Assembly: GCA_965279515.1 (NCBI GenBank)
Contig: CBDIID010000003.1
Location: forward strand, 3,776,001 to 3,840,000
Source: Turneriella sp.
GTDB taxonomy: Bacteria > Spirochaetota > Leptospiria > Turneriellales > Turneriellaceae
DNA length: 64,000 bases
Reading direction: 5' to 3'
Positions 27-28,371 of this stretch are shown one piece after another. Position 1 is the stretch's first letter. Every line of letters begins with the position of its first letter. The notes under the pieces were generated by a model. The model made no database searches. It saw nothing but the letters and a program-made list of their open reading frames with translations, and had not been told where the DNA came from. Both the position numbers and the translations under genes were made by a program.

Positions 27-224
27 GTCTGAAGTAGTTGCGCTTGCAAGCCCGGGTAGGAGGCCCGGGCGATCATAACGAATCATTTTTCATGAACTTT
101 GATGAGATTTCGAAACAGGCTTTACACTTATAGCAAATTCTAAATTTTGAAACCGCATGAGAAATAATTCCCAATATTTGGAGAATAGCGGCCCGTATTT
201 AGCCTCTTTATTTATATCTGAAAA

Positions 225-830
225 ATGCTGATAGAAATTTTTGCTTCCGCAGTCACATGTATTTTGGGAATTGATTGTGATCTGAGTGCAACTTTAAAAA
301 GTAAAATAGAGGCGATTCCGAATGTAAAAAGCACTGAGGTGGTGCAAGATTATTCTCTAACTGAACGGTATCATGCGAGGATTACTCTTCGATCTGGAGA
401 TACTTTTGACCTGATTTACATTGGAAATGAGCATCTTTTAGAAACAGAATACTTCTGGATTAGGCAAATTAATGGCTATCAATATGATTATGTCTACTGC
501 GAAAAGTCAACAAGTCCCAATCAAGCCGGCAAAATTCGCCACGGTCACTTTTCCTTAGGCTCACGGGGCAGTTTTCAGCATAAATTTCCCTTCTTAATTC
601 GCAATATCAAAGATCTAGTGCAAAATTTCGAGGCCATCAAGATTGAGTACTTCCGGACATCGGTTGAGCCTAAATTTCTTTACGACAAACTGTCTGATGG
701 GAATGAAATCTATGCTATGTTGCTCAAAGTCAGAGATAAGAATCCTTTGGGCCCTTATATCTTTCTATTAGGCGAGCCTTATAAAAATGCCTGGAAGTTT
801 AAGAATGGTGCATGCCGATATGAACATTAA
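225..830 (+). CDS. Hypothetical protein (cassette 1, inverted orientation)
   Basis: 201-aa ORF filling the cassette; no family recognised. Confidence 0.7.
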   Translation: MLIEIFASAVTCILGIDCDLSATLKSKIEAIPNVKSTEVVQDYSLTERYHARITLRSGDTFDLIYIGNEHLLETEYFWIRQINGYQYDYVYCEKSTSPNQAGKIRHGHFSLGSRGSFQHKFPFLIRNIKDLVQNFEAIKIEYFRTSVEPKFLYDKLSDGNEIYAMLLKVRDKNPLGPYIFLLGEPYKNAWKFKNGACRYEH

Positions 831-944
831 GGTCGAAGCCAAGGGGTTAATTGGTCTAGCCACTACGGTCTGAGTTTTATTGCTTATGAAGTGAGCAGCG
901 CCGACAGGAGGTCGGCGGAAAAGGGAAGCGCAACTATTTCAGAC

Positions 945-1152
945 AACGTGGAATTTACCTGACGATTGGTGACACTTGTGTCATTAATTTAATCAGGAAA
1001 GCCGAATTGTGTCACCAATTGTGCCCGAAGCGCCTCGCGGCAAAGCACAAAACAAGCGTCCCGCTTGTGCTTTGTCCGCGATCTTCTGGCGCGTAGGGCC
1101 GAGCACGCGAGGAGCTACGGCACCGCAGCGAGCGCAGCAGGTAAATTTTGTT
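945..1152 (-). repeat. attC-like element E1
   Basis: AACgtggaatttacctg ... caggtaaattttGTT; arms complementary. Confidence 0.88.
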
Positions 1153-1162
1153 GTCAGCCGTT

Positions 1163-1798
1163 TCATTGTTTAGAGTGCATAACTATATAGGGTTTCAGGA
1201 AAGTCTCAAATTCAGTAATTATTTCCTCTAACCGGTGCTTGTATGGATCCTCGTTGGAAATCGGCGATACTATCCGCCAGTTCTTTTCTTCTTCCTCAAT
1301 TTCTTCGGCTGATCGATTAATACGACTTGCCTTGCTTTGTAGACTTCGTAAATGCTCGTTGATAGCGAAACTTAAGTTGGAAATATGTTGATTATACTTT
1401 ACTGTAACATCTTTGAAGGTTTTACCCCAAATGACCTCGGCTTCATAAAAATTTGATTGCAGTTCGGTAGAAACCTTTGAGTACTTTGTCCATCGGGCCT
1501 CATATACATAACCAATATGATTATCAGATTTCCAGAAATCTTTGAGATCTTGTTCCGCATTTTTGCTAAGTTTCTCAATGGCTTCAACGCTTTCTCTGGC
1601 CCAAATAAAGGGTGATCGGACCTGAGCAATAACGTCACGGGATCTATATAATGCTTTTAAGATGCGCTTAGCCAATTCGTATTCATAGTTTCCTTTCAGC
1701 TGGCGCCGCCAGGTAGAGAGACCTTTTATCGCAACTATTGAGCCAATCACTGCAAATATGATTGTTAGTGTGTCTTTCGCAATTGTAAAATATTCCAT
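1163..1798 (-). CDS. Hypothetical protein with N-terminal TM helix (cassette 2)
   Basis: 211-aa ORF; stop codon lies inside the cassette terminal inverted repeat. Confidence 0.8.
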   Translation of the reverse strand: MEYFTIAKDTLTIIFAVIGSIVAIKGLSTWRRQLKGNYEYELAKRILKALYRSRDVIAQVRSPFIWARESVEAIEKLSKNAEQDLKDFWKSDNHIGYVYEARWTKYSKVSTELQSNFYEAEVIWGKTFKDVTVKYNQHISNLSFAINEHLRSLQSKASRINRSAEEIEEEEKNWRIVSPISNEDPYKHRLEEIITEFETFLKPYIVMHSKQ

Positions 1799-1830
1799 AT
1801 AACTAGTCCTTAAGCAATGAAATGGCTGAC

Positions 1831-2037
1831 AACGTGGAATTTACCTGAGGTTGAGTGACGCATCGTTCAACTTTGTATTTTGTAAAGCCATATTGCGTCA
1901 CTCAATCTGCCCGGAGCGCCTCGCGGCAAAGCACAAAACAAGCGTCCCGCTTGTGCTTTGTCCGCGATCTTCTGGCGCGTAGGGCCGAGCACGCGAGGAG
2001 CCACGGCACCGCAGCGGCGCAGCAGGTAAATTTTGTT
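1831..2037 (-). repeat. attC-like element E2
   Basis: Same architecture as E1; nearly identical to E3. Confidence 0.88.
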
Positions 2038-2056
2038 GTGTGCAGTGATCGCTCGG

Positions 2057-3016
2057 TTAAGGGTATTTGCGCCAACCCAAGACTTTAATTAGGTGAGAGT
2101 AGACTTTTTTGACACCCAACTCTATTTTTTTAACATCTGCATCAACATTATTAATCAAATAACCACTTTCGAGGCTAGCTCGATGGATTATCTGGTGTCG
2201 ATGTTGAAATAGCTCTTCCAGGTGCTTATAGAGTGATTTAGTAGATTTTTTGTATCTGGTCTTAAGCACTTTCGCTAAGTCAAATCTCATATCAATGTCC
2301 TTAAAGGATTCAGATATTGATCTCATATTTTGAAATGATATACTCTGCGCCAAGGCTTCAACAGCAGTTGTTCGCCCCATGGCCAGATCATAATTGTGCG
2401 CCTTATGAATTTGTTGCTTCCGGAAGAAGGATTCATTGCCTCGATATCGAATGAGGGCAATAAATGTATCACGAAAATACTTTTCTGTAATTGAAATTAG
2501 GTACGGCAGTGCCATCGCCGCTGGAACGGCTAATGGATGATGTCGGCCCATTATTTCGATCGAAAACTTATTCGAGGGAATACCAGGGGAAACTTTGGAC
2601 CTAAAATTGCGCAAATAGGATCTCATTGCCCCGACTGATTGATGAAAACTTTCAAAGGCTAAAAAGCAACCAGCTTCGTCTTTTTCCCGATTTTCACCAT
2701 TTAATGAAAAATATCGCCCGCGCCCTCTGTCTGTTGAAAATGTACCGCCAAATCTCTCTTTAACCAAGCGGATAATACGATTCTGCATTTTCAAGTCCCA
2801 TTCTGAGCAGAATATCGTGGTCCTTGTACAAATCTTTGTATTGTCTCGCTCTTTATTCAATATATAGATGCCAACGCCTTGATAATACCTGTAATCTTCA
2901 TCTTTATAAAAATAGTAGTACCCAGGCTCACTTTTAGTGGCGCCAATAGTTGTTAGAAATTCTTCAATTTTCTTTTGAGGAGTCTTAGGGATAGTGTTTT
3001 CAGAATCGTGTCCCAT
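2057..3016 (-). CDS. Putative HEPN-domain protein (cassette 3)
   Basis: 319 aa; helical C-terminal region with RxxxxH motif (RHQIIH). Confidence 0.6.
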   Translation of the reverse strand: MGHDSENTIPKTPQKKIEEFLTTIGATKSEPGYYYFYKDEDYRYYQGVGIYILNKERDNTKICTRTTIFCSEWDLKMQNRIIRLVKERFGGTFSTDRGRGRYFSLNGENREKDEAGCFLAFESFHQSVGAMRSYLRNFRSKVSPGIPSNKFSIEIMGRHHPLAVPAAMALPYLISITEKYFRDTFIALIRYRGNESFFRKQQIHKAHNYDLAMGRTTAVEALAQSISFQNMRSISESFKDIDMRFDLAKVLKTRYKKSTKSLYKHLEELFQHRHQIIHRASLESGYLINNVDADVKKIELGVKKVYSHLIKVLGWRKYP

Positions 3017-3051
3017 ATTTAGACTAAGTATTTCTCGCGATCATTGCACAC

Positions 3052-3259
3052 AACGTGGAATTTACCTGAGGTTGAGTGACGCTTTGTTCAACTTTGAAAA
3101 TTGTAAAGCCATATTGCGTCACTCAATCTGCCCGGAGCGCCTCGCGGCAAAGCACAAAACAAGCGTCCCGCTTGTGCTTTGTCCGCGATCTTCTGGCGCG
3201 TAGGGCCGAGCACGCGAGGAGCTACGGCACCGCAGCGAGCGCAGCAGGTAAATTTTGTT
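3052..3259 (-). repeat. attC-like element E3
   Basis: AAC 3052-3054 to GTT 3257-3259. Confidence 0.88.
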
Positions 3260-3270
3260 GTCTGCCGTTT

Positions 3271-4413
3271 TCATGTTCGATCGCCACGACTTCTAAGATT
3301 GTAAATGTTATTTTGGATGTTTGCCGCTATTAAGGGAATTAGGAATGTGCTTGGAGCCAGTAAAAGATACAGCACATAAATACCTGAGCCAATTGATTCC
3401 AGTATGGCTTTCTTATGCTCCACTAGCGAAACTAAGCCAAACTGCAAAGCAAAGATCAAGCAAAATGCGAGGGCGCTCGATCCGAAGTTTACGCTGAATA
3501 TGATAGCCGATTTCTTGATACCTCTCAATATGTTCGAGTTATCTTCTATGATCGCAAATGGAACATACCAACAAAAAATGCTCACAACAGTCGCGACAAC
3601 TTGACTTACGGTGGCGACAGGGAGCCACACATCATTCAGCACATCTGTGAAGTTACCGGCATTCATATACGTGCCATACTTGGAAAAAAAGAAAACTAGA
3701 TCTCTAATGGAAATCAGGAGCCCGAGTACGATGTTAAATGAGAATACTCGGGCAAATGGTGATAAATTCTCCGATGAATACAGGGAAGTATCCTTCTTCA
3801 AGAGTAAATTAATAAAATAGATTTGACCTAGAGAAATCACAGCCGTGCCGATCACCTTTAGGTTCAGAAAGAAGAACACCGTTGAGAATGGTGTTAAGCC
3901 TGAAATCGTTGTCCCGTTCCGAAAAATATGTACAATCACGCCGAGAAAAAAGAGGAATAACGGAATTAGGAGAATGAGGCGAAAATTTCGGACAGCATTT
4001 TTTGTAGGCGTCGTTGCTTTTACCTTGAAGACAATTAGTAGTAACCAGGTTGTTACTAGCACGAATAGTGTTTCAATCTGATGAAAACCATTTCCCACAT
4101 TGGCTAGGGTGTTATAGGCTATCTCACCCCATTTGCCAGCCTTGGCAACTTTTGCTTCGGTATCAAGCAGTTCCGTTGAACGAGTAAAAATCCAAAGACC
4201 GTACAAATGCAAGATAATGGTTAGAAGCAAACCGGGTAATGCATAAATGAGAATTCGCCATATTGCATCAATGTCCAAGCGAAGCCATTTTAATTGGCTT
4301 TCGTCCTTAGCTTGTTCAATGTTTGCAGCTTTTTTTTGCCGCAACTTCATTACAATTCCCGTGATGATAATTCCCGCAGCACCGAACCAGAGTATGATGT
4401 CTTCTTTATTCAT
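3271..4413 (-). CDS. Multi-pass membrane protein, unknown function (cassette 4)
   Basis: 380 aa with many hydrophobic segments; stop inside the terminal inverted repeat. Confidence 0.8.
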   Translation of the reverse strand: MNKEDIILWFGAAGIIITGIVMKLRQKKAANIEQAKDESQLKWLRLDIDAIWRILIYALPGLLLTIILHLYGLWIFTRSTELLDTEAKVAKAGKWGEIAYNTLANVGNGFHQIETLFVLVTTWLLLIVFKVKATTPTKNAVRNFRLILLIPLFLFFLGVIVHIFRNGTTISGLTPFSTVFFFLNLKVIGTAVISLGQIYFINLLLKKDTSLYSSENLSPFARVFSFNIVLGLLISIRDLVFFFSKYGTYMNAGNFTDVLNDVWLPVATVSQVVATVVSIFCWYVPFAIIEDNSNILRGIKKSAIIFSVNFGSSALAFCLIFALQFGLVSLVEHKKAILESIGSGIYVLYLLLAPSTFLIPLIAANIQNNIYNLRSRGDRT

Positions 4414-4469
4414 AGGTGTTTTCTTTCTCCAGTAAATTCAATAAAACGTATATCATGAAAATGGCAGAC

Positions 4470-4676
4470 AACGTGGATTTTACGCTGACGTTTTTTGACG
4501 CTTGTGTCATTTAATCAATTTGTAAAGCCGATTTGCGTCAAAAAATGTGGTCGTAGCGGCTCGCGGCGACGCGCGAAAACACACCTCCCGGTGTGCGCGT
4601 CGTCCGCGATCTTTGCCGCGGAGACCCGAGCACGCGACCCAACGAAGTGGTCGCGGCGCAGCGCGTAAAATTTGTT
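4470..4676 (-). repeat. attC-like element E4
   Basis: AACgtggattttacgc ... gcgtaaaatttGTT. Confidence 0.88.
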
Positions 4677-4777
4677 CTCTGACGTAGTTGTGCCTGTGAG
4701 CCCGGGCATGGATGGCCGGGCGAATATGTATCAGACTCCTATAAATTCTTGACAGGCTCAAACAATTCATCAGTCTC

Positions 4778-5047
4778 TTGTCCGATATGAATGCAGAAAC
4801 GATTCCGGCACATGCATATATTTCAAGTTCCCCAGAGATTTGTGGGGGAGAGCCAGTAATTTCTGGGACACGAATGACAGTAAGAGCAGTGGTTCAGTAT
4901 GTTTTGATTCAAGGTCTTACCCCCGAGGAGCTAGAACGGGAGTTTAAACAACTAAGTCTTTCACAAATTTATGATGCTCTGTCTTATTACTATGACCACA
5001 AAAGCATAATCGACAAGTTTATAGCCGAGAACTCGGCCAAGAATTGA
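4778..5047 (+). CDS. DUF433-family antitoxin (cassette 5)
   Basis: ISSSPEICGGEPVISGTRMTV...QIYDALSYY signature. Confidence 0.9.
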   Translation: MSDMNAETIPAHAYISSSPEICGGEPVISGTRMTVRAVVQYVLIQGLTPEELEREFKQLSLSQIYDALSYYYDHKSIIDKFIAENSAKN

Positions 5048-5385
5048 CCCCAATTAAGCTATATCTAGATGAAGACGTAAGACCTCTTCTGGCAGAAATT
5101 CTTACTGAGCGCGGTTTTGAAGCCACCCACACGCTGTTTCATGGGAATTCTGGGAAAACGGATTTGCAACAGCTGGAATTCGCTGCTCAAAATCAGCTTA
5201 CTCTACTTACGCACAATATTCGCGACTTTGCCAATCTACATACTGTCTTTCTTAACGGAGACAAAAAACACTTCGGAATTATTTGCGCACCGCAATTGAA
5301 ATTGCCATTACTAGTCTCGCGCACGTTAGTCTTGCTTTCATCAGTCAATAAAGATTCTGCACGTAATAATCTCCTCTGGATTTAG
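5044..5385 (+). CDS. DUF5615 PIN-like toxin (cassette 5)
   Basis: KLYLDEDV...LLTHNIRDF...HFGII motifs; overlaps the DUF433 stop by 4 bp. Confidence 0.88.
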   Translation: MTPIKLYLDEDVRPLLAEILTERGFEATHTLFHGNSGKTDLQQLEFAAQNQLTLLTHNIRDFANLHTVFLNGDKKHFGIICAPQLKLPLLVSRTLVLLSSVNKDSARNNLLWI

Positions 5386-5449
5386 GGAGCATCCTGCGAG
5401 TTGCGCCGCCATGGAGGGCGGCGGAGTAAAGGGCACAACTATGTCAGAG

Positions 5450-5660
5450 AACGTGGAAAATACCCGAATTGCGCCCTCGCGGCTGTAAAGTGTAAATAAT
5501 CACGGCTTTATGTGACTTTCGCGGGAGCGCATTTGCCCGGAGCGCCTCGCGGCAAAGCACAGAACAAGCGTCCCGCTTGTGCTTTGTCCGCGATCTTTGG
5601 CGCGCAGGGCCGAGCACGCGAGCCAACGAAGTGCTCGCGGCGCAGCGGGTATTTTTTGTT
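5450..5660 (-). repeat. attC-like element E5
   Basis: AACgtggaaaatacccg ... cgggtattttttGTT; compensatory arm changes. Confidence 0.85.
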
Positions 5661-5851
5661 AGCCGCCGTTACCGGATTCGCGCGGCTGGCGAGCAACCCG
5701 AAGGTCAGCGAGATACTGTATTTCGATCTTATTAGTAACCGAGGAGTTGTCGCCAGGATCAAAGGCGTAAGCAGCGAAATCTGGCTGTGCTCTCTGATAA
5801 CAAATCCTCTTTTTCGCCCCTTCGGGCGCGAAGGAGGTAATGGTGGCTAAC
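5658..5851. other. ORF-less cassette 6 (~190 bp, structured)
   Basis: Bounded by gttagccgccgttacc / ggtaatggtggctaac; no self-contained ORF of 60 aa or more. Confidence 0.75.
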
Positions 5852-6063
5852 GTGGAATTTACACGAGGTCGATGGTGCGCCGCACAATAAGAGCAGGCTT
5901 ATTTGGGAAGCCGCGTATTAAGCACCATCGATCTGCCGTAGACCGCTCGTTGCGCCTGACCAAACAAACGTCCCGTTTGTCAGGCGTCAACGATCTTTGC
6001 GGTCGGAGGCCGAGCACGCGAGGAGCCACGGCACCGCAGCGAGCGCAGCGTGTAAATTTTGTT
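5849..6063 (-). repeat. attC-like element E6
   Basis: AACgtggaatttacacg ... cgtgtaaattttGTT; nearly identical to E8. Confidence 0.88.
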
Positions 6064-6081
6064 GGGCGCCGTTTTGTGGCC

Positions 6082-6399
6082 TCAACCACGATATTGCTTC
6101 TTGTCTACTTGTGTCGGCAAATTCCGAATTTTGGCCCAATATTCTTCTCGAGCATCTTCATCAATCTGTACAACCGCGCCGTAAAGTGTATCAGAGCCAT
6201 TCTTTTTTGGACCAGAAATCCAATAGTGGTCCCCAGTCTCTGCCTCAATACAGTTATACTTGTAGCCTGAACCTATTTTCTGAAAGGTTTTGCCGTCATA
6301 GTGGTATGAGCGCTTAGACTTTGATAGGGTTACCCAGCCAATGCGGCCTGGCCCAGCTAGGCCTTGGCTTTTGTCTTCTATATACATGATCCGTTTCAT
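6082..6399 (-). CDS. Small conserved hypothetical protein (cassette 7)
   Basis: 105 aa, RIMYIEDK...RIG...YWISGP...IDEDAREEYW; resembles a widespread family of unknown function. Confidence 0.8.
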   Translation of the reverse strand: MKRIMYIEDKSQGLAGPGRIGWVTLSKSKRSYHYDGKTFQKIGSGYKYNCIEAETGDHYWISGPKKNGSDTLYGAVVQIDEDAREEYWAKIRNLPTQVDKKQYRG

Positions 6400-6592
6400 A
6401 CTTTTAGCCTCACAGTTTGAGACAAACCGATTCTAGGCGTTTTTGACATATTTTCAATTCTTTTTCGGAATTGAAGATTCCCTATGCGCTTAATTGTGAG
6501 GGGCGCCAAAAATTGCCCAAATAGGGTAAATGAATTCAGTACCGCTCTTTTACCGTATTTCGGTAAATGTGTCTTGCCACAAAATGGCGCCC

Positions 6593-6801
6593 AACGTGGA
6601 TTTTACGCTGACGTTTTTTGACGCCAGTGTCAATTATTCAATTTGTAAAGCCGATTTGCGTCAAAAAATGTGGTCGCAGCGGCTCGCGGCGACGCGCGAA
6701 AACACACCTCCCGGTGTGCGCGTCGTCCGCGATCTTAGCCGCGGAGACCCGAGCACGCGAGGAGCTACGGCACCGCAGCGGCGCAGCGCGTAAAATTTGT
6801 T
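6593..6801 (-). repeat. attC-like element E7
   Basis: Same family as E10-E13. Confidence 0.88.
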
Positions 6802-6961
6802 GTCTGAAGTAATTGCGCCTGTGAGCCCGGCTAGGAGGGCCGGGCGACGAGGGTGAAAGTCTCGTAACTCGCCTTTTAGTTTCTCTGCATTTCGGGCTTT
6901 ACACCCGAGAGTTCTGCGACATGCCACCTTTGGTGGATCAAAATTCCTTCTATGCTCAATT

Positions 6962-7849
6962 ATGGCCCTACACAGATCAACAGACGCAGAACTTAGGGAG
7001 AATTGCCGGAAGGTCATTGAGGCTCTCGAATTCTGGCTAAGGCGAGTAATTGATATTACGCTAGCCCCCGTATTTGGTGCAGACTACGTAAATGCAAGCC
7101 ATATTAATGGAAATCAGCATATAATTAAGAAATCTGTACGGGATGGTATTAAGGGTCGAGCTGAGGCGAGCCCAAAGCGCTACCCAAGAATGATTGATGC
7201 GGTTCTTCTTGATGAAGAAATCGATATCATCTGTCATCCTGAGTTATATATTAAGTTTTTCAAAGAATATTTTGAGCAATCCTATCCCTTTGGAAATGAT
7301 CATCTTAGGCATTATCTGCGCAAGATTCTGGAGCCCAGAAATAATCTTGCTCATGCTAATCCGATAAGTGTTCGGCAAGCAGAACAAATAATGTGCTATT
7401 CGAATGATGTCATTGACGCCATAAAGAATCGGCTAAAAGAAAAGAATCTGGATAAAGAATACAACGCTCCCACGATAATCAAGATTTCAGATTCGAGGGG
7501 TATTGTGTTTCATGATTCTTAGATTAGAAGGAATAACACCGGTCGCGGAGGCATTGATCTAACGGGGGATCAGGCCGCCTCGCTAAGGTCTGGGGACACA
7601 ATAAGTATAGAAGTAGAAATTGATCCTAGCTTTCCTTCTGAAGAGTACGCGGTCGACTGGGTATTTCCGGAAAACGTAAATGCGGAAAAGTATAATTCTA
7701 ATAACAGAGTGGTTTTGCACCTAACTGATAAAAATGTCCGAGTAGATTTCACCGTGTATTGTAAGGTAATTTCAACTAAAGGTTGGCACAGGTGCGGTGA
7801 CGTTGATGATTGCGTGGGCATTACGTACAAGGTTTTGCCGTCAATTTGA
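6962..7849 (+). pseudogene. Swt1-like HEPN protein interrupted by one in-frame TAG (cassette 8)
   Basis: RNNLAH motif; TAG at 7520-7522, then the same frame stays open 108 more codons to TGA 7847-7849 near the cassette end. Confidence 0.72.
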
Positions 7850-7926
7850 AGGATTACCGCAAATGGAATATTAGTGTAAGCGCCGACACGAGGTCGGCGG
7901 ATAACAAAGGCGCAATTATTTCAGAC

Positions 7927-8141
7927 AACGCGGAATTTACACGAGGTCGATGGTGCGTCGCACAATAAAAGCAGGCTTATTTGGAAAGCCGCATATTAAG
8001 CACCATCGATCTGCCGTAGACCGCTCGTTGCGCCTGACCAAACAAACGTCCCGTTTGTCAGGCGTCAACGATCTTTGCGGTCGGAGGCCGAGCACGCGAG
8101 GAGCTACGGCACCGCAGCGAGCGCAGCGTGTAAATTTTGTT
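7927..8141 (-). repeat. attC-like element E8
   Basis: AAC 7927-7929 to GTT 8139-8141. Confidence 0.88.
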
Positions 8142-17841: not shown

Positions 17842-17875
17842 AAAAAATAGTTCTTTAAGGCCATATTTAACTTCT

Positions 17876-20236: not shown

Positions 20237-20376
20237 GGGCATTCTCTGCCTGCGCTCTGCCCACGGCGGCGGTTTGTGATGAAAAAAAAGAGCCTCCCTA
20301 CGTCCGACTGGAACCAAACGGTCGAAATCCGCCGGATTCTGCTGTATTAGATGAGCACCAAAAAACAGGAGAATCT

Positions 20377-21111
20377 ATGAAAACATACTTTACTTTGCTC
20401 ATCGCGCTCACTCTCGCAGCTTCGCTGCCAGCTGCGCCCAAGAACGCCGCAAAACCAACGAAGCCAGTAGCCACCGAACCGCCGGCAGCCGCAGCCGTAC
20501 CGACGCCTCAGCCGACGCCAAAAACAGAGGGAGGCTTGGTCATGAGCCTGGCATTCTACGGTGCGTATAACATCGCAAGCTCAGACCTCTTCACCTTACC
20601 CGCGGGAAGCACGGCCAGCTGGACCACATCGGGTGGTGGCGTTTTAGGCGCAGGCGCTAATTTTATGATCGGCAGCCAGCTGATCCGCGGTGGGGTAAAT
20701 GTTGCCTATTCTCCCATTGGCGAATACCGGCAAGGCGGTTCGACGGTATTTCTTAGGTACTTACCCATCGAAGGCTTACTGCGTCTTTATCCGATCGCCG
20801 GCCTTTATGTCGGCGGCTTGGCTGGGTACGCGCTTGATCTGAGTTCGGCCGTGGTTTCGGGCAGCGGTTCGCTGACAAAAACCGACGGCATAACGTATGG
20901 CGGCAGTCTCGGCTACCTGATCAAAAATGGGCCCGTCGACTTAGATCTCGGCGTTGATATTCGGATGTTATCGTTGTCAGCAACCGCCCCTACCGGTGGC
21001 AGTAATTTTTCCCTAACCAGTCTTGACGCGACCAGCGTTGCAGCGGGTGTGAGCAAAACCTACACAATTTTGAATATTGTTCCACGCGTCGGCTTTAATT
21101 ACAAATTCTAA
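20377..21111 (+). CDS. Exported protein, probable outer-membrane beta-barrel
   Basis: Signal peptide, Pro/Ala linker, ends VGFNYKF; AGGAG RBS. Confidence 0.72.
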   Translation: MKTYFTLLIALTLAASLPAAPKNAAKPTKPVATEPPAAAAVPTPQPTPKTEGGLVMSLAFYGAYNIASSDLFTLPAGSTASWTTSGGGVLGAGANFMIGSQLIRGGVNVAYSPIGEYRQGGSTVFLRYLPIEGLLRLYPIAGLYVGGLAGYALDLSSAVVSGSGSLTKTDGITYGGSLGYLIKNGPVDLDLGVDIRMLSLSATAPTGGSNFSLTSLDATSVAAGVSKTYTILNIVPRVGFNYKF

Positions 21112-21114
21112 ATT

Positions 21115-21585
21115 GTGCACTACAGGTTTGAGTTGACACCATTTTTTCGTAAGGTAATGAAGGAAAATATGAAATCAGAAGCAACCACGCAAGCAACAGC
21201 AGTTCGCGCCGTTCAGGCCTGGCTGGTAATTTGTAGCGGGATCTTTTTCTGCCACTGCGGTGCTACGGCAGGTCTTAATGCCCGTAACGTCGACCATCCG
21301 GTGATGGTGGGCAATGTTCGCCGCATAGGGGCACGGCCTGCCGGCGAATTGAGAAATAGCCAACCCCTGTCGTTTAAGAACACCCAAAACGGTGACTACA
21401 GCACACTCTCGCCCGGCCGGCTCAGCGGCTACCTGCTGAAGAATCTGGGATACAAAAACAGTGTGGTGCAAATCAACAGCATCGGGTACAAAAATACGGT
21501 CGCGAACTATTTTTTTACCTGGTCGGTACGCGATGAAGCAAGTATCGAGGGTGAAGGCGGTCTGCAATCCGAAGGGGGCAGATAG
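21115..21585 (+). CDS. Hypothetical (lipo)protein
   Basis: ORF in an operon-like run; start uncertain. Confidence 0.6.
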   Translation: MHYRFELTPFFRKVMKENMKSEATTQATAVRAVQAWLVICSGIFFCHCGATAGLNARNVDHPVMVGNVRRIGARPAGELRNSQPLSFKNTQNGDYSTLSPGRLSGYLLKNLGYKNSVVQINSIGYKNTVANYFFTWSVRDEASIEGEGGLQSEGGR

Positions 21586-21586
21586 A

Positions 21587-22021
21587 ATGCTCTCGTTGAC
21601 AGGCAAAATGAAATACCTAATGGTCATGTGTATTGTCATCGTGCTAAACTGCGCTGGCAGTCAGGGTGCGGTACGATTTGATCATTTGGATTATCCCGTT
21701 TCTATGAGCGGCTTTTTGTATGGCAAGAATAACGAAATTCTCATGAAAGATCTGCACATGCAAGAAGTCGGAAAATTCTCGCTGACCCGGCGGCAGTGGA
21801 GCATCGGTTACTCACTCATACCGCTGAATGGCAAAGAGGCTTTCGCCGAGGCCATGAACCAGGCTATCATTGCAGCCAAGGGTGACGCGATGGTCAACCT
21901 CGAGATCGAGACGGCTAGTTGCTCATGGAACAGTGTGCCGTACCTTTTTCTGTTGCCCATTTGGCCCGGTTGCGCTGATGTCAAACTGACCGCAGATATT
22001 ATCAGGGAGAAACGACCATGA
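21587..22021 (+). CDS. Hypothetical lipoprotein
   Basis: VLNC lipobox-like; start taken at MLSLTG. Confidence 0.7.
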   Translation: MLSLTGKMKYLMVMCIVIVLNCAGSQGAVRFDHLDYPVSMSGFLYGKNNEILMKDLHMQEVGKFSLTRRQWSIGYSLIPLNGKEAFAEAMNQAIIAAKGDAMVNLEIETASCSWNSVPYLFLLPIWPGCADVKLTADIIREKRP

Positions 22022-22431
22022 AATTTGCCAGCACAATTCACCGGACGATAGTGCGCGTTATTTTTTTCTGCCTGCTTTCAGCACTCGCCGCGCAAGTGCC
22101 GCAAGATGTATTGTTGCTTGAAGAAGAACAGGTGAATATTTTTCATTTGCACCGAAATTGTAAATCTCTCGGTGTGATCGAAACGGAAAGGTCATGGCCG
22201 TATAAAAAAACAGAATATGCATCACTCGAAAAATCCAGGATCGCAGAAGAAGCAATTATGCGCGACATGGGCTATCGGGCCGGGGCAAACGCCATGCAGT
22301 TCTTAGGTATGAAATATAGCGTCAGAACGATCGGTCGGAAAATACCGGAATTCAGAATTGACATTAGCACCGATATTCGCTACTGGAAATGTGACCCCAA
22401 AACGCTCGGTATGCTAAAGCGCAGAGAATGA
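22018..22431 (+). CDS. Hypothetical exported protein
   Basis: ATGA-coupled to its neighbours; signal peptide. Confidence 0.7.
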   Translation: MKFASTIHRTIVRVIFFCLLSALAAQVPQDVLLLEEEQVNIFHLHRNCKSLGVIETERSWPYKKTEYASLEKSRIAEEAIMRDMGYRAGANAMQFLGMKYSVRTIGRKIPEFRIDISTDIRYWKCDPKTLGMLKRRE

Positions 22432-23231
22432 TGCTGCGCGTATTTGTCGGCGTCTTTCTGTTCGCATGCCTCGCCGCATGCAATGCGCGCCCGTCGTTCG
22501 ATAAGATGATTGTGCGCCAACCGGGGTCGCGAAAGGCGATTGGGAACAAAGTCTTCGTCGATCAGGCGACCGGCGGCGGCGAAAACGACGCCCTGTCGCC
22601 AACGATCGCCGGCGAAATCAAAATTCCCAACGAAGAATTCACCAAGGCTGTTGAAACGTCGATACGCCAATCCGGTTTTTTCTCAGAGTATGCCGCGCGC
22701 TTTGAAGAAGAGTGGGGGCTGCGGGTGCTCATCGTCAACGTTGAAACGCATATGGACATGCTTGCGGCGACCATGACAGGGCACGTGACGGCGAGATATT
22801 CCGTTTTTTACAAGAATAATCCGGCATACGAATTTGAGTTTCAGACTAAGGGTGCCGCGACCGATTACCTCGGCAGCTATGGCGGTCTGCGCAAAGAGGC
22901 GGTTGAAAAAGCGACGCAGCAAAATATTGCACAATTTTTGCAGCACGTCGTAACCTATGATTTCTCCGATATTACCGAAGCGCCTGTGCAAGAAAAGCTA
23001 CGGCAGAAAAAACAAATTCGCATCGTTGGGCGCATTTTCCAGATTAACGGACGCAAGGTCGATATCATACCCGCCGCTGGGGCGCTCAAAGTGGGAAAAA
23101 TTTACACTATCTTGCGCAAGGACAGGCCAGTCGCAACTGTAAGGGTAGATACCGTCTTCCATACCAAGTGTGCCGGAAAAATCTTGACCGGCGGCGCGGC
23201 GATCGCACCGGATATGTCTGTTGGACAGTGA
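22428..23231 (+). CDS. Hypothetical lipoprotein
   Basis: LAAC lipobox; ATGA overlap. Confidence 0.75.
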   Translation: MMLRVFVGVFLFACLAACNARPSFDKMIVRQPGSRKAIGNKVFVDQATGGGENDALSPTIAGEIKIPNEEFTKAVETSIRQSGFFSEYAARFEEEWGLRVLIVNVETHMDMLAATMTGHVTARYSVFYKNNPAYEFEFQTKGAATDYLGSYGGLRKEAVEKATQQNIAQFLQHVVTYDFSDITEAPVQEKLRQKKQIRIVGRIFQINGRKVDIIPAAGALKVGKIYTILRKDRPVATVRVDTVFHTKCAGKILTGGAAIAPDMSVGQ

Positions 23232-23315
23232 CGGCGTTTCTGCTTTTACTATAACTGTCCGTACCCAAAATTAATTCTGGCTGACGCCCTTACCGATGCG
23301 CCGGTTCATGCATCT

Positions 23316-23597
23316 ATGGCACAAAACATCCACGCATTCACCGCCGCCAACATTTCCGGCAAAGAAACAAGCCTCGCCGATTACAAAGGCAAAGTTGTTT
23401 TGATTGTGAACACCGCCAGCAAATGCGGCTTCACACCGCAGTTCGCGGGTCTCGAATCGCTGTACGAAAAATACAAAGACCGCGGTCTCGTGATTCTTGG
23501 CTTTCCCTGCAACCAATTTGGCGCGCAAGAACCCGGTACATCTGATCAGATTCAGGAATTCTGTCAGCTCAACTACGGGGCAAATATAGCACTTTAA
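23316..23597 (+). pseudogene. C-terminally truncated glutathione peroxidase
   Basis: [24 protein letters not shown] present; homology stops at NYG (~23580) where the scaffold motif begins; WNFxKF motif missing. Confidence 0.88.
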
Positions 23598-23610
23598 GGC
23601 ACTAACTACC

Positions 23611-23705
23611 CATAACTTGTCATTTTGTCACCTTCAAAAACAGGCTTTACACCCGAGAGATTCGGGATTCTGTAGGCCTTAGTGGGGAGTAATTTCCTAC
23701 ATATT
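23611..23705. repeat. Scaffold module M, right copy of cassette 11
   Basis: Identical direct repeat of 18313-18407. Confidence 0.95.
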
Positions 23706-23775
23706 CAATATCGCTGTTCTCGTCAGAGCGCGCGCACGGATGCGCGCGGATAACCAAGGCGCAATTATTTCAGAC

Positions 23776-23984
23776 AACGTGGATTTTACGCTGACGTTTT
23801 TTGACGCTTGTGTCATTTATTCAATCTGTAAAGCCGATTTGCGTCAAAAAATGTGGTCGTAGCGGCTCGCGGCGACGCGCGAAAACACACCTCCCGGTGT
23901 GCGCGTCGTCCGCGATCTTTGCCGCGGAGACCCGAGCACGCGAGGAGCTACGGCACCGCAGCGGCGCAGCGCGTAAAATTTGTT
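23776..23984 (-). repeat. attC-like element E11
   Basis: E7 family. Confidence 0.88.
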
Positions 23985-24049
23985 GTCTGAAGTAATTGCG
24001 CCTGTGAGCTCGGCCACGGATGGCCGAGCGAATCCTTCGTAGGACTTCT

Positions 24050-24143
24050 CATAACTGGTTGTTTTCCCCCCCTGTCAATCGGGCTTTACAGCCGATAGGT
24101 GAGGTTTAAGTTCCCCTTAGTGAGGAGCAATATCCTATATATT
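24050..24143. repeat. Scaffold module M, left copy of cassette 12
   Basis: cataactggttgtttt...cgggctttaca...ggagcaatatcctatatatt. Confidence 0.75.
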
Positions 24144-24149
24144 AAATGT

Positions 24150-24617
24150 TCAGAGCATCAGCTCCATCGAATAGTTTACCAGAATTTGGCCATTCCGCTC
24201 GATGTGATTTTCGCAAATTTCTCGAAAGCCTTGCTTTGCAAAAAACTTTCGCGCGACAAGCGACGCTTCGACATAGAGTCGCTTTAACCGCATTTCGATT
24301 GCCTGACGTTTCACCTCTTGGTAGAGGGCCGTGCCAACACCCTTGCTTTGAAAATCTGGCCGCACGTATGCGCAGTCAATGTGTCCATCGGCCTCAAGCT
24401 CGATGAAGCCCGCAATCATCGGGCCGACAAGAGCGACATGCGGGCGCTTTTGATTAAGGCGCGTTTGCCATTTTATCATATCGGTTGGAGTTGGCGCCCA
24501 TGCTTCTTTTTGCTTAGCGGTATAAATTCTTTCATCGATGGCATGCACCGCAGTATGAAAAAGATCTGCAATCTCTCCAGCCATTGATTCAGAATAAGGC
24601 GATAATTGCCTGATCAT
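24150..24617 (-). CDS. GNAT N-acetyltransferase (YafP-like)
   Basis: DGHIDCAYVRPDFQSKGVGTAL...EASLVARKFF. Confidence 0.9.
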   Translation of the reverse strand: MIRQLSPYSESMAGEIADLFHTAVHAIDERIYTAKQKEAWAPTPTDMIKWQTRLNQKRPHVALVGPMIAGFIELEADGHIDCAYVRPDFQSKGVGTALYQEVKRQAIEMRLKRLYVEASLVARKFFAKQGFREICENHIERNGQILVNYSMELML

Positions 24618-24624
24618 ACTGAAA

Positions 24625-25227
24625 TCAGCCCGCCTTCAATCCGGCTATAAGCAAGTGAATAACCGCTTCGGCTTCGGCCCTGGCTTTCGTCGAATCTTTA
24701 GCGGTGGCAATAGCTGCGCCCGCTTCCGCAAAAGCTCCGCCCAGAATCCGCGCCGCATCGGGCAAGGGCAGCGGCCGCATGATACCCATTTCTATCCAGC
24801 GGTGCATCAAGCCCGCCACCAGAGGTTCATTGACCGTGGCGTCGGCTTCTTTAAATTTTGCGTGGGCCAAAACGGTAGGTGCCTCACGCAACAGAACCAC
24901 CTGAACAGAGGGGTCCATACAAGCATTCAGGTAAGCGCGAGCTGCTGCCTCGACTTGCGCCCAGCCTGTTTCAGCATCGGCCGCATTCTGAATGGTCGAA
25001 GCCAGTTCGGTGAAAATTTCCGAAACGACGGCGGAGAAAATGTCAATCTTGCCCGCAAAGTGGTGGTAGAGTGCGCCATGAGTCACGCGAGCTGCCCTGC
25101 AGATATCAGCAACGCTGGTTTCTGCATATCCATACTTTGTGAAGACTTGCCGAGCAACACGCAACAAACCTTTCCTTCTAACGGCTTTTTGTTCCACACG
25201 GCTTTTTACGGTTCGTTGCTTAGGCAC
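24625..25227 (-). CDS. TetR-family regulator
   Basis: GYAETSVADICRAARVTHGALYHHF. Confidence 0.92.
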   Translation of the reverse strand: MPKQRTVKSRVEQKAVRRKGLLRVARQVFTKYGYAETSVADICRAARVTHGALYHHFAGKIDIFSAVVSEIFTELASTIQNAADAETGWAQVEAAARAYLNACMDPSVQVVLLREAPTVLAHAKFKEADATVNEPLVAGLMHRWIEMGIMRPLPLPDAARILGGAFAEAGAAIATAKDSTKARAEAEAVIHLLIAGLKAG

Positions 25228-25243
25228 GAGGAAATCCGATTTT

Positions 25244-25291
25244 ATTTGACATTACGTCGTAATGTTTATACATTATCATATAATGTCAAAT
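25244..25291. promoter_or_regulatory. Tandem palindromic operators overlapping a sigma70-like promoter
   Basis: acattacgtcgtaatgt and acattatcatataatgt; TTGACA-N17-TACATT on +; lies between divergent tetR and cupin genes. Confidence 0.7.
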
Positions 25292-25410
25292 ACAATAACA
25301 ACCGCTGATCTAGGTTTTTATGGGTCACGATTCGCGCCGCACGTCTGTGGCATAGTCTCACAAACGATGTTATTTTTTCTGGGTGGGATGGCAACCATGC
25401 GCGCCCTAAG

Positions 25411-26316
25411 GTGCATATGATGAGAAAAGCGAATCTGATCTTCGGTATCGTCTTGTTTCTTGCTTTTCTAGGCACAGGATATTACATGAGCCGCTACTTC
25501 AAGCCCGAGCATCTAACGGATCTGACGATGCGCATGCAAATTCGGGCAAGCCATATCTATCTACTATTCACCGCGCTCTTAAACATCCTGGCATTTACGT
25601 GCGAACTGCGTGGAACCGGCCAGGCAAGAAAATTTTTCGATACGGCTTTTCGTCTATTTCTCGTCGCTGCCGGCACCGTCGCGCTCTGCGCATTCGCTTT
25701 CGAGCATACCGGCGACCTGAAAGAACGCAAGCTGACTTTGTTATCCGTTATATTGGCGTTAGCTTCGGTTGGCTTCATTTTGATCCACGAGATTTTGGCC
25801 GCAAAGCGCCAGCATTTATTTTTGTCTAGCCATGCCTTGACTATGGAAAAACCAATCGCTGTGAACGCTGGAAAAATTGAAGCGCGCCAAAAAAAATCCA
25901 TATACCCGGCTCCTTTTGCAGCAATGATGGCGCTGCGCGAAAAGCGAGTGCTGGGCGATCTTTTTGGCCTGACAAACTTCGGAGTGAACTTGACAACAAT
26001 TAAGCCTGGTGGCATGTCTGCGCTACGGCATGCACATGCAACACAAGATGAGTTTATCTATATTGTTTCGGGAAATCCCGTGCTGGTGACTAATGAAGGT
26101 GAAACGCAACTCAGTCCGGGTATGTGCGCGGGATTTCTTCATGGAAACGGAAACGCACACAACCTAATCAATCGCGAAAACACCGACGCTGTTTATCTCG
26201 AAATAGGCGACCGGAGCGCTGGCGATTCCATCTTATACCCCGATAACGATCTCATGGCAAATTTTGAAGGCCCTGGCAACTGGCGATTTACCCACAAAGA
26301 CGGCTCGCCCTACTAA
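25411..26316 (+). CDS. Four-TM membrane domain fused to a cupin domain
   Basis: C-terminal half LGDLFGLTNFGVNL...RHAH..QDEF...NAHNL is a cupin; N-terminal half is hydrophobic. Confidence 0.75.
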   Translation: MHMMRKANLIFGIVLFLAFLGTGYYMSRYFKPEHLTDLTMRMQIRASHIYLLFTALLNILAFTCELRGTGQARKFFDTAFRLFLVAAGTVALCAFAFEHTGDLKERKLTLLSVILALASVGFILIHEILAAKRQHLFLSSHALTMEKPIAVNAGKIEARQKKSIYPAPFAAMMALREKRVLGDLFGLTNFGVNLTTIKPGGMSALRHAHATQDEFIYIVSGNPVLVTNEGETQLSPGMCAGFLHGNGNAHNLINRENTDAVYLEIGDRSAGDSILYPDNDLMANFEGPGNWRFTHKDGSPY

Positions 26317-26361
26317 CCGAACACGTGTCTCAAAAATATAGCCCTTTAAGGGCTGACTTTC

Positions 26362-26409
26362 CATAACTGGTTGTTTTGTCCCCCTGTAAGGAGCAATATT
26401 CGAGATATT
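26362..26409. repeat. Internally deleted right copy of module M (cassette 12)
   Basis: cataactggttgttttgtcccctgt joined to aggagcaatatt; both ends match 24050-24143. Confidence 0.7.
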
Positions 26410-26475
26410 GAAGCCTGATTACGTTGCCGCGTCGACACGAGGTCGGCGCAGCACAAAGGCGCAATTATTTCAGAC

Positions 26476-26684
26476 AACGTGGATTTTACGCTGACGTTTT
26501 TTGACGCTTGTGTCATTTAATCAATCTGTAAAGCCGATTCGCGTCAAAAAATGTGGTCGTAGCGGCTCGCGGCGACGCGCGAAAACACACCTCCCGGTGT
26601 GCGCGTCGTCCGCGATCTTTGCCGCGAAGACCCGAGCACGCGAGGAGCTACGGCACCGCAGCGGCGCAGCGCGTAAAATTTGTT
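26476..26684 (-). repeat. attC-like element E12
   Basis: E7 family. Confidence 0.88.
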
Positions 26685-26727
26685 GTGCGAAGTCGATGCC
26701 TCATAAGATATTAAAGATCTGTCGGTA

Positions 26728-27156
26728 CTATCGCCCAATGGCGGGTCTTTGCTTTTCTAACGGGCGAACAAAATTGCAATCATACCCTTTTCCTTTGAAG
26801 AAGCTTGAGTTGGTATCAAAATCTCGACTTTTCCATTTCTCGCTTGAATAAGAAAAGCAACCACTTGGAGCTTTTATGTCGTTAAAATTTAGCGTGTAGC
26901 AAATGAGCTGGCCTTCTGAAATAGGGGTTTCAACGCAATAAAAGCCATCTTTGGCTGTATGGTATTGCTTTGTGACCGGTTCGGCGGCCTTAGGGTCTAG
27001 ATTAATCGTTATGCCAATATCCGAACAACCTTTTCCGTTCACGGTAACGTATCCGTACATGCTGCACTTGAATTCATGCGCTTGCGCATGAATTTTCTGA
27101 TTTAGAAAAAATGATGTAGAGGAAAAAAGTAAACAGTAGAAAATATTGCTTTTCAT
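26728..27156 (-). CDS. Hypothetical exported Cys-containing protein (cassette 13)
   Basis: AGGAG RBS abutting the terminal repeat; signal peptide. Confidence 0.75.
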   Translation of the reverse strand: MKSNIFYCLLFSSTSFFLNQKIHAQAHEFKCSMYGYVTVNGKGCSDIGITINLDPKAAEPVTKQYHTAKDGFYCVETPISEGQLICYTLNFNDIKAPSGCFSYSSEKWKSRDFDTNSSFFKGKGYDCNFVRPLEKQRPAIGR

Positions 27157-27184
27157 AAAAATCTCCTAGGCATCGATTTCGCAC

Positions 27185-27393
27185 AACGTGGATTTTACGC
27201 TGACGTTTTTTGACGCCTGTGTCATTTAATCAAATTGTAAAGCCGATTTGCGTCAAAAAATGTGGTCGTAGCGGCTCGCGGCGACGCGCGAAAACACACC
27301 TCCCGGTGTGCGCGTCGTCCGCGATCTTTGCCGCGGAGACCCGAGCACGCGAGGAGCTACGGCACCGCAGCGGCGCAGCGCGTAAAATTTGTT
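27185..27393 (-). repeat. attC-like element E13
   Basis: E7 family. Confidence 0.88.
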
Positions 27394-27573
27394 GTCTGAA
27401 GTAATTGCGCCTGTGAGCCCGGCTAGTAGGGCCGGGCGAAGAAGAATTAATGCCCTTAACCGCTCATTTTGTCATATGAAATCAGGCTTTACACTTGAGG
27501 GATTCGGGATTCTATAGGCCTGATTCGGGAGCAATTTCTTATATAATATTTCTCACCAAAGCGAAGTAACGAT

Positions 27574-28236
27574 ATGAAGCTCAAAATGATTCTATTTGCA
27601 ATGTTGATTCAGAATGGTATGATGTCTGCTCAAGAAGCGAAAAAGCCCGACCAAAAAATTTTGAGGGCCATTGATTCCGGAAACATACAAAAGGTAAATT
27701 CGGCGATAAAAGAAAACCCGTCATATCTCAATCAAGCCATTGAATTCTGGGGCACACCCCTAATTTTTGCAGTGAATAAAGATTTTCTAGCGGCGGTTGA
27801 AAGTTTAGTGAAAAGCGGTGCCGATGTGAACGGACGCGACACAGAAGGACGCACGCCACTAATGTGGTGCCCTATGGATGTGGGGCCGTTCCGTGGCTGT
27901 GGGAGGAACCAGAAGACGCCTCAGAGGAAACGCCAGGAAAGCGAGAGATGTGATACCAAGCTTGCCCGCCTGAAAAAAAACAGAGAGCGTATTCTCATAT
28001 TTCTGCTGAAATCGGGAGTCGATATTGCCGCTGTTGATAACCAAGGACGAACTGCGCTCCACTACGCAGCACGAATGGACGATTTAGACATGGTTAAGTT
28101 TTTGCTGAAAAACGGTGCGAATCCGCACGCACGGGATAAGAGAGGCATGACTCCCGCGAGCGAGACGGCGCCTGAGGGTACCGCGTCGGGCTATGACGCG
28201 GGGAGAATTAAAAAAATCCTGAAGCATAGTCTATAG
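27574..28236 (+). CDS. Ankyrin-repeat protein (cassette 14, inverted)
   Basis: GTPLIFA, GRTPLM, GRTALHYAA...LLKNGANP. Confidence 0.9.
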   Translation: MKLKMILFAMLIQNGMMSAQEAKKPDQKILRAIDSGNIQKVNSAIKENPSYLNQAIEFWGTPLIFAVNKDFLAAVESLVKSGADVNGRDTEGRTPLMWCPMDVGPFRGCGRNQKTPQRKRQESERCDTKLARLKKNRERILIFLLKSGVDIAAVDNQGRTALHYAARMDDLDMVKFLLKNGANPHARDKRGMTPASETAPEGTASGYDAGRIKKILKHSL

Positions 28237-28371
28237 AGCGACATATTATGTATGAAAGAAAAAAATAGTCCTTTAATGCTGTAACTAGCCACAATGAGTT
28301 CATCCTGTCGCAGCAGATTTGCTGCGTCGCCAAGGATGGCGACGAAGTACAAAGGCGCAATTATTTCAGAC

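Follow-up and report, generated by a model that had tools for sequence, protein, structure and literature searches.

Introduction

Sedentary chromosomal integrons are among the known systems closest to the locus treated here. They consist of mostly single-gene cassettes that point away from a tyrosine recombinase gene, with foldable recombination sites (attC) of AAC/GTT cores between the co-oriented genes, an attI site at the head of the array, and toxin-antitoxin cassettes among the cargo. The formation of gene cassettes is still listed as an open question (PMC8618304). We describe here a stretch of 64,000 nucleotides (nt) from Turneriella sp. (the window; G000:C3:3776001-3840000, where G000 labels the source genome), whose first 29.4 kb form the last part of an array with 52 repeats, each ~210 nt long, and within it a class of cassettes that carry a small hairpin with a GGA loop near each end. 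A preliminary description had noticed these hairpins in eight cassettes and read them as CsrA-like sites at the two ends of a shared scaffold. We propose, with a probability of about 0.5, that they belong to a mobile hairpin family and act as a signal on single-stranded DNA, kept next to the recombination site and read by a putative protein.

Three other kinds of element enter the comparison. Repetitive extragenic palindromic (REP) sequences and bacterial interspersed mosaic elements (BIMEs) are dispersed palindromes moved with REP-associated tyrosine (RAYT, Y1) transposases, and have a conserved tetranucleotide foot. Hairpin-loop sites for CsrA/RsmA go by the consensus name CANGGANG; csrA is mostly lacking in Bacteroidota and Patescibacteria. 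The TD-2 motif (RF03162; Weinberg et al. 2007, PMC1950547) is multi-copy in one spirochaete, with variable stems and no known function.

Comparison with sedentary integrons

The Turneriella arrays share all the integron features listed above. Besides the array that ends in the window, G000 has a second one of 77 repeats (C3:85-172 kb) and further small repeat clusters elsewhere; among the genomes searched, the ~210-nt repeat is present in 12 of 13 congeners and in 1 of 27 other relatives. Our cassette set was drawn from stretches of six congeners, where 447 inter-repeat intervals, less 32 without matching ends and 40 duplicates, left 375; the six genomes are kin, and the cassette counts are not independent. 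In every cassette the two ends can pair over 15-22 bp, and the GTT/AAC cores are fixed. The preliminary description had taken these ends for related terminal inverted repeats; they are the outer arm of the attC-like site, of which every cassette has its own pair, and not transposon ends.

The arrays differ from described integrons in their sites of ~210 nt with cassette-specific arms, and in their recombinase. A XerD-like recombinase of 366 aa is encoded at the + strand end of arrays in G002, G011, G013, G005 and G003 (broken in G003), and a recombinase gene takes the same position in arrays of G118, G173 and G307. An attI-like site precedes the gene in G002, G011 and G005. The gene of G000 is remote from the two arrays, each of which ends in an attI-like site, and no recombinase gene follows the attI-like head in the window. 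No integron integrase above the TIGR02249 cut-off was found in G000 or five congeners, the recombinase scoring 161 and 192 bits where 265 are required. It is colinear with XerA/XerD, with 23 residues where IntI4 has 64, and is thus without the I2 region, described as an innovation for single-strand recombination (PMC7790495).

The strand assignment is central to what follows. Among hairpin-free cassettes with an open reading frame (ORF) of at least 80 aa, 170 of 180 are read on the minus strand, and by the integron layout we therefore take the window's minus strand as the top strand. A G.T pair stands at position 11 of the recombination arm, on the + strand, in 364 of 375 cassettes. Based on this layout and G.T bias, the GGA-bearing + strand would be the bottom strand of the attC-like site. 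We found no end hairpins of this kind in descriptions of integrons, and a full-text literature search, with most subscription journals outside its range, returned no paper on paired cassette-end hairpins or on these arrays.

Paired hairpins on one strand

All 16 hairpins reported for the window fold where they had been placed, on the + strand (Table 1). As had been stated, 12 have GGA in the loop; the others have ACGAG (three) or AGTAG (one). Their stems, mostly of 7-8 bp and GC, do covary, both sides having changed in 3 of 8 pairs of hairpin A and in 5 of 7 pairs of hairpin B. Across the 375 cassettes, under a loose motif rule, a C-ANGGAN-G hairpin occurs at both ends of 111, at one end of 30 and at neither end of 234. 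A strict rule gives 88, 49 and 238, and by eye most of its one-sided cases have a bulged partner. On the reverse strand the same motif occurs in none of the 375. A genome-wide count, which had been suggested as a check, gives the same picture: GGA loops on perfect stems of at least 7 bp (a rule that misses the dispersed twin repeat treated below) number 82 on the + strand and 3 on the other in the two arrays (151 kb), against 63 on the + strand in the remaining 4.7 Mb. The array hairpins are not chance.

Their position is set as well. Measured to the core G, the closing C of hairpin A is at 34 nt in 52 of 119 cases; for hairpin B, the closing G is 36-37 nt away from the core in 69 of 133. The hairpins are not confined to the eight cassettes, and the single scaffold proposed for these does not hold at this scale: the ends of 137 hairpin cassettes fall into 96 different sequences, and the end subfamily of the eight window cassettes accounts for 35 of 375. 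A motif-free search returned 250 strong terminal hairpins, 196 with GGA, 22 with ACGA and 32 with other loops. In the 174 six-base loops, position 4, which the search left unconstrained, is G every time, and position 2 is T in 67, A in 53, C in 48 and G in 6. Compensatory changes have kept the stems intact on 304 distinct segments. The hairpin mark is real and under selection.

The mark is indifferent to the direction of the cargo, which in two-hairpin cassettes of Turneriella lies on the + strand in 54 cases and on the minus strand in 56 (n=110). Inverted and multi-gene cargo had been described as exclusive to hairpin cassettes. This is so within the window; beyond it there is enrichment only, with 54 of 110 two-hairpin cassettes inverted against 10 of 180 hairpin-free cassettes with an ORF, the other 56 of 110 not inverted, and 6 of 234 hairpin-free cassettes longer than 1.8 kb. 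Toxin-antitoxin-type genes make up 26 of 102 main ORFs of hairpin cassettes and 11 of 149 of the others, in a scan that took 102 of 109 and 149 of 154 ORFs and omitted window ORFs scanned before and three duplicates of one insertion-sequence gene.

The strand is also visible in the stems. The + strand folds lower than the minus strand in 242 against 54 of the 304 segments with DNA parameters, and in 213 against 76 with RNA parameters. Stem defects on the + strand are purine-purine (A.G 37, tandem GA/GA 28 and G.G 16, against 2 C.T), and G.T pairs number 15 against 1775 Watson-Crick pairs. These data bear on one alternative, that the hairpins act on the minus-strand cargo mRNA as 5'/3' stabilisers or processing sites, with a C-rich loop like an anti-Shine-Dalgarno sequence. 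In most arrays the pair does bracket a minus-strand ORF at ~60-130 nt, where such stabilisers would sit. On the minus strand, however, the stem defects become C.C and TC/TC and folding is poorer, the hairpins keep their strand when the cargo is inverted, and no consistent T-run was seen after either hairpin. We consider an action on the cargo mRNA very unlikely.

The hairpin pair beyond the genus

The hairpin pair recurs in other spirochaete families, in Bacillota and in metagenomes. A pattern combining hairpin B with the cassette end matched 23 of 351 spirochaete genomes, a reversed control matching none. It also matched 3 of 301 genomes of Bacillota and, in metagenomes, at least 122 stretches. 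From 103 distinct matches, picked by hairpin B alone, the left end could be located in 47, and 42 of these 47 have hairpin A; none has it on the reverse strand. The main ORF of these 47 cassettes is antisense to the GGA loop in 43, sense in 1 and absent in 3. Nine further genomes gave 59 units, 26 with hairpins at both ends, 6 at one and 27 at none, again with none on the reverse strand; here the two-hairpin cargo is antisense in 22, sense in 1 and absent in 3 (n=26). The sites in the 11 array stretches of this set are shorter and unrelated. A small number of units are mispaired or overlapping, and in G475 the recombinase was not identified. The hairpin strand thus tracks the recombination site and not the cargo. 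The loop is retained on unrelated stems in two phyla.

Among 20 spirochaete recombinase loci, hairpin cassettes were found at 2, several of the remainder being short. A homology search of genome contigs gave four distant recombinases, and a pattern scan of viral sequences gave no match. A plasmid search with one hairpin end gave a single match, which we judge to be chance, and two Bacteroidota plasmid loci with a related recombinase have no cassette units. Single pattern matches in 4 of 201 Acidobacteriota genomes (control 1) and in 1 of 251 genomes of the phylum of G185 also look like chance.

A dispersed twin repeat with the same loop

Outside the arrays, G000 has 56 clusters of two to six GGA loops spaced 15-45 nt apart; overlapping loop pairs number 68 there, against 1, 1 and 1 for three control loops. 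A profile of this twin repeat finds 63 loci outside the arrays, on either strand. The repeat is often placed right at stop codons, at gene ends, next to tRNA-like sequence or in frame within genes. Inside ORFs it is sense in 20 cases and antisense in 13, and the replichores hold 35 and 28, which shows no clear preference (the ORF calls are crude). It is present in all 13 congeners. At four coding sites it forms an in-frame insert of 54-57 bp that is missing in 6 of 7, 7 of 7, 4 of 4 and 6 of 7 congener loci. In the two loci that are not empty, the position is taken up by another insert, in one case a different twin and in the other a sequence that has no GGA loops. The twin repeat behaves as a mobile insertion. 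Different species carry different inserts at the same codon at two of these places (the L295 site in G002, L314; the L302 site in G003, L336), and the two sites are therefore hot spots for small repeats.

The 49 copies tested have 49 different middles. In the twin, the similarity of the left flank to the right flank, and also to the middle read as its reverse complement, slightly exceeds that in 500 shuffles, the effect being small; an earlier, cruder test of a twin direct repeat was not significant. These are hints that the flanks may represent a short target duplication together with target-matched stems.

The twin repeat is like REP/BIME elements in being dispersed, palindromic, arranged in alternating tandem runs, located at gene ends, and present or absent between species. 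It is unlike them in that the loop is conserved and the stems vary, and no transposase flanked by the twin repeat was found. No tetranucleotide foot is obvious in its alignment, although no dedicated search for one was made. Runs of four to six alternating GGA hairpins stand at G000:C3:814257-814426, 3054287-3054399, 4131228-4131385 and 4813341-4813500, and look like CsrB/RsmZ-type decoy RNAs or BIME-like mosaics. In G475 there are 33 core matches over the chromosome, 4 of them in its array; about 30 sites (G475:C1, L274-L293) are copies of a dispersed element that is longer, has two or three GGA hairpins and is enclosed by arms of ~20 bp, which vary between copies and are complementary within each copy.

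TD-2 is alike in its two hairpins, whose consensus loops (ccAuGGAugg and gcAcGgAUgc) match the ANGGAU type; the TD-2 of Treponema denticola has two such loops. It is unlike in that the consulted text of its description (PMC1950547) makes no mention of integrons, cassette-end pairing or mobility. At E 0.1 the TD-2 model does not match this genome, and in five genomes no match exceeds its gathering score (48.7 bits). An Rfam scan gave a single miRNA match in window positions 1-30000 at E 1, judged to be chance, and in three other arrays nothing but a group II intron.

The twin repeat gives substance to a second alternative, in which the cassette hairpins are passive relics: a dispersed repeat settles at gene ends, and genes that turned into cassettes brought copies along. 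The existence of the same-loop family, found in every congener and often right at stop codons, speaks for it, as do the chromosome-wide matches in G475 and the two loops of TD-2. The preliminary description had likewise allowed for an abundant REP family inserted at random. A REP-like family with this loop does exist, but the cassette copies are not random: dispersed copies are twins on either strand, whereas those in cassettes are single, on one strand (375 of 375 cassettes, 59 of 59 units), at set distances and nearly always paired, and their stems are maintained by compensatory change. The passive alternative is already strained by the strand and pairing data, and we regard it as quite unlikely.

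A proposed single-strand DNA signal and its possible reader

The single-strand DNA signal that we favour would work as follows. The C-ANGGAN-G hairpins would form one family, which may also spread as the small REP-like twin repeat. In a cassette, one copy would stand inwards of either end at a constant spacing, always on whichever strand gives the better fold at the attC-like site. If integrons are a guide, it is this strand that would be recombined and excised as a circle, and the junction of the circle would then read hairpin B - attC-like stem - hairpin A. A putative loop-reading protein, probably the one that spreads the twin repeat, would bind to the DNA there when this class of cassettes is made, excised or moved. 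The preliminary description had suggested that the hairpins are signals bound by a protein on a single strand, and that they set a second class of cassettes apart; this is supported by the near all-or-none pairing, the fixed spacing, the use of one strand and the loop kept on unrelated stems in two phyla.

A number of observations weigh against this proposal. First of all, about two thirds of the cassettes have no hairpins, which are thus dispensable for recombination in general. Second, cassette stems of 7-8 bp stand against inner stems of 3-5 bp in the twin repeat, the loop being shared, and the twin-repeat profile has no site inside the arrays; because stem build differs and the profile is silent there, a common function for the two kinds of hairpin can only be inferred. 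Third, purine-purine mismatches stabilise RNA too, and terminator-like hairpins taken as an RNA control (G.T 24 against A.C 20) did not tell DNA and RNA apart. Finally, we found no protein for the GGA loop. The genome has a single Y1 (REP/IS200-type) transposase, which was considered for the spread of the twin repeat, but it is accompanied by inverted repeats of its own and by no twin; no Y2 (IS91-family) transposase is present in G000.

A further reading, which we think unlikely, takes the hairpin pair as the footprint of cassette building. The writer of the twin repeat, whose stems are taken as partly matched to target DNA, would cap a DNA fragment with two loop hairpins and pass it as a single-stranded circle to the recombinase. 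If true, this would be a first way into the making of integron-type cassettes, here with a recombinase that is without the domain thought to be needed for single-strand recombination.

The case for CsrA

The main rival of the DNA signal is that the hairpins act as RNA, with + strand transcripts carrying high-affinity CsrA sites at both cassette borders. CsrA binding would insulate, terminate or stabilise RNAs, or the repeats would soak up CsrA; + strand RNA could come from inverted cassettes with their own promoters, from toxin-antitoxin cassettes or from read-through. We hold this to be possible, if somewhat unlikely.

Three points are in its favour, of which the first two also count against the DNA signal. 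First of all, the six-base A-N-G-G-A-N loop closed by C-G, with its invariant G at position 4 (174 of 174), is a close match to the CsrA consensus, as is the mix of five- and six-base loops, and GGA prevailed in the motif-free search. Selection from random pools (SELEX) gave RUACARGGAUGU with six-base loops (PMC7652899), and in a gel shift CsrA of Leptospira binds a GGA hexaloop in vitro (PMC8668096). Second, csrA is present in all six hairpin-positive genomes tested, and both csrA and fliW in this one. Finally, hairpin cassettes are enriched for toxin-antitoxin-type and inverted genes, and the runs of four to six hairpins outside the arrays resemble Csr decoy RNAs.

On the other hand, cargo mRNA and GGA loop are antisense to each other in most cassettes outside the genus (43 of 47 and 22 of 26) and in 56 of 110 within it. 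The place of the hairpin is set by the recombination site and not by a start codon or ribosome-binding site; in Turneriella the hairpins lie typically ~50-60 nt from the nearest ORF end, with median end gaps of 94 and 103 nt. SELEX ligands mostly have no more than 4 contiguous pairs (PMC7652899), against the 7-8-bp GC stems of the cassettes; the inner stems of the twin repeats (3-5) would be short enough. Position 2 of the loop is G in just 6 of 174, whereas SELEX gives a purine, and loops without GGA (ACGA-type, 22 of 250) stay in place. In window positions 1-9400 a promoter/terminator scan found no excess (16 promoter sites against 15.1 expected). The CsrA reading of the preliminary description thus fits the loop and the presence of csrA, but not the usual orientation, the distance from the ORF or the stem build; as CsrA sites, the hairpins are predicted only. 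The DNA and CsrA readings are compatible: any RNA that runs through the hairpins would probably be bound by CsrA. Two GGA hairpins at G000:C3:3984904-3984950, directly before the start codon of a flagellin-like frame beginning MIINHN, are probably an ordinary CsrA site.

Cargo probably loaded by a rolling-circle element

A unit of ~125 nt stands in direct copies on both sides of the cargo in cassettes 10, 11 and 12. Within the arrays it is confined to the end subfamily of the window cassettes; a dif-like pattern did not match it. In five genomes the unit stands directly downstream of all four Y2 genes found (Y2_Tnp and Zn_Tnp_IS91 domains), G005 among them, and the downstream end is where oriIS lies in IS91-family elements (PMC13181058). 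In G011 it occurs six times behind an IS91-family transposase gene, three copies in tandem and three more round inserted DNA; in G013 two hairpin cassettes with the window end sequence hold a transposase gene behind hairpin A. Also in G011 (C1:1043800-1049400, L259), two attC-like repeats and a cassette are trapped on the opposite strand between copies of the IS91 end.

The cargo of cassettes 10-12 is foreign, with cut genes at its edges; that of cassette 10 starts within a MarR-type gene. As copies of the host chromosome, the cargo of cassettes 10 and 11 finds only paralogues of 69-83%. The arrangement is like that of IS91-family/ISCR elements (PMC13181058) in the repeat downstream of a Y2 gene that recurs round foreign DNA with cut genes; it is unlike them in that this genome has no such transposase, and in that repeated ends with captured pieces are stacked inside a cassette. 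Most likely, the direct repeats are remaining IS91-family downstream ends, and the multi-gene cargo was loaded by a rolling-circle element of this family once in this cassette subfamily. What had been proposed as a reusable scaffold is better explained in this way: it is most likely a hairpin cassette that a rolling-circle element filled with cargo. This accounts for the cargo and not for the hairpins.

Significance

A large class of cassettes is marked exactly, at both ends and on one strand only, and the mark persists from phylum to phylum although the stems are unrelated. New are the cross-phylum counts, the strand rule, the finding that twin repeats at a given site are present in some species and absent in others, and the derivation of the inner repeat from an IS91-family element. 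The loop shared with a twin repeat that differs between species offers a bait for finding the reader and a simple target for mutation, and the hairpin data suggest a context for the orphan TD-2 motif. Furthermore, the window suggests how a cassette can be loaded with kilobases of foreign DNA by a rolling-circle element that sits in it.

Features of the window and neighbouring observations

Table 1. Features of the window (positions counted from its first nucleotide)
Feature	Position	Strand	Remark
Hairpin A, cassette 1	50..70	+	cassette 24-947; loop AGGAG
Hairpin B, cassette 1	899..917	+	loop AGGAG
Hairpin A, cassette 5	4700..4721	+	cassette 4674-5452; loop ATGGAT, one G.G mismatch; cargo DUF433/DUF5615 toxin-antitoxin-type pair on +
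Hairpin B, cassette 5	5404..5423	+	loop ATGGAG
Hairpin A, cassette 8	6825..6845	+	cassette 6799-7929; loop AGGAG
Hairpin B, cassette 8	7881..7899	+	loop ACGAG, without GGA
Hairpin A, cassette 9	8165..8186	+	cassette 8139-8900; loop AAGGAG; cargo one gene on minus, the normal direction
Hairpin B, cassette 9	8852..8871	+	loop AAGGAT
Hairpin A, cassette 10	9109..9130	+	cassette 9083-18045 (9 kb); loop ATGGAG
Hairpin B, cassette 10	17996..18016	+	loop ACGAG, without GGA
Hairpin A, cassette 11	18274..18295	+	cassette 18248-23778 (5.5 kb); loop AAGGAG
Hairpin B, cassette 11	23729..23748	+	loop ACGGAT
Hairpin A, cassette 12	24008..24029	+	cassette 23982-26478 (2.5 kb); loop ACGGAT
Hairpin B, cassette 12	26429..26449	+	loop ACGAG, without GGA
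Hairpin A, cassette 14	27417..27437	+	cassette 27391-28374; loop AGTAG, without GGA; cargo ankyrin gene on +
Hairpin B, cassette 14	28325..28344	+	loop AAGGAT
14 attC-like repeats	943..28589	+	191-220 nt, AAC...GTT
Starts of attC-like repeats 1-7	943, 1829, 3050, 4468, 5448, 5847, 6591	+	
Starts of attC-like repeats 8-14	7925, 8896, 18041, 23774, 26474, 27183, 28370	+	
attI-like head of array	29399..29430	-	resembles site beside recombinase gene in G002, G011, G005
oriIS-like IS91-family downstream end, cassette 8	6850..6960	+	single copy
oriIS-like IS91-family downstream end, cassette 10	9135..9254	+	left copy
oriIS-like end, cassette 10	17844..17981	+	right copy
oriIS-like end, cassette 11	18301..18410	+	left copy
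oriIS-like end, cassette 11	23583..23710	+	right copy; truncates glutathione-peroxidase gene
oriIS-like end, cassette 12	24038..24148	+	left copy; partial right copy 26335-26412
oriIS-like end, cassette 14	27443..27551	+	left copy; start-motif remnant at 28262
Dispersed twin GGA-hairpin repeat	30886..30945	+	upstream of P450 gene, outside array
Dispersed twin GGA-hairpin repeat	52372..52430	+	between convergent genes; missing in 7/7 aligned congener loci

After the attI-like site of the window, where congeners have the recombinase, stands a GC-rich cytochrome P450 gene (29518-30876). A direct repeat GTTC-N7-GTTC, which we take to resemble an SOS box, lies just upstream of the recombinase gene in G000 (L047:9197-9220) and G002 (L041:12376-12400). 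Two kb from the G000 recombinase gene are a worn attC-like repeat and a worn hairpin A (C3:2929088-2929230; L047:11088-11240), followed by a DNA-methyltransferase-like gene. In sedentary integrons, cassette genes as a rule do not face the replication fork. By the GC skew of G000:C3 (minimum 2,844,849, maximum 311,185), normal-direction genes of both arrays face the fork.

Some cassettes and genes recur within the arrays. A gene-less cassette of 194 nt (window 5658-5851) occurs at least 10 times in the two arrays of G000, nearly always behind one repeat variant, and in G011 short gene-less cassettes of its own are likewise present many times over. The same IS481-type gene of 401 aa lies just inside the right-hand end of four G000 cassettes (142910, 155932, 3739823 and 3764226), in two of which it takes the place of hairpin B. 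A group II intron RNA is found at the tail of a cassette array in G307 (L241:4391-4644).

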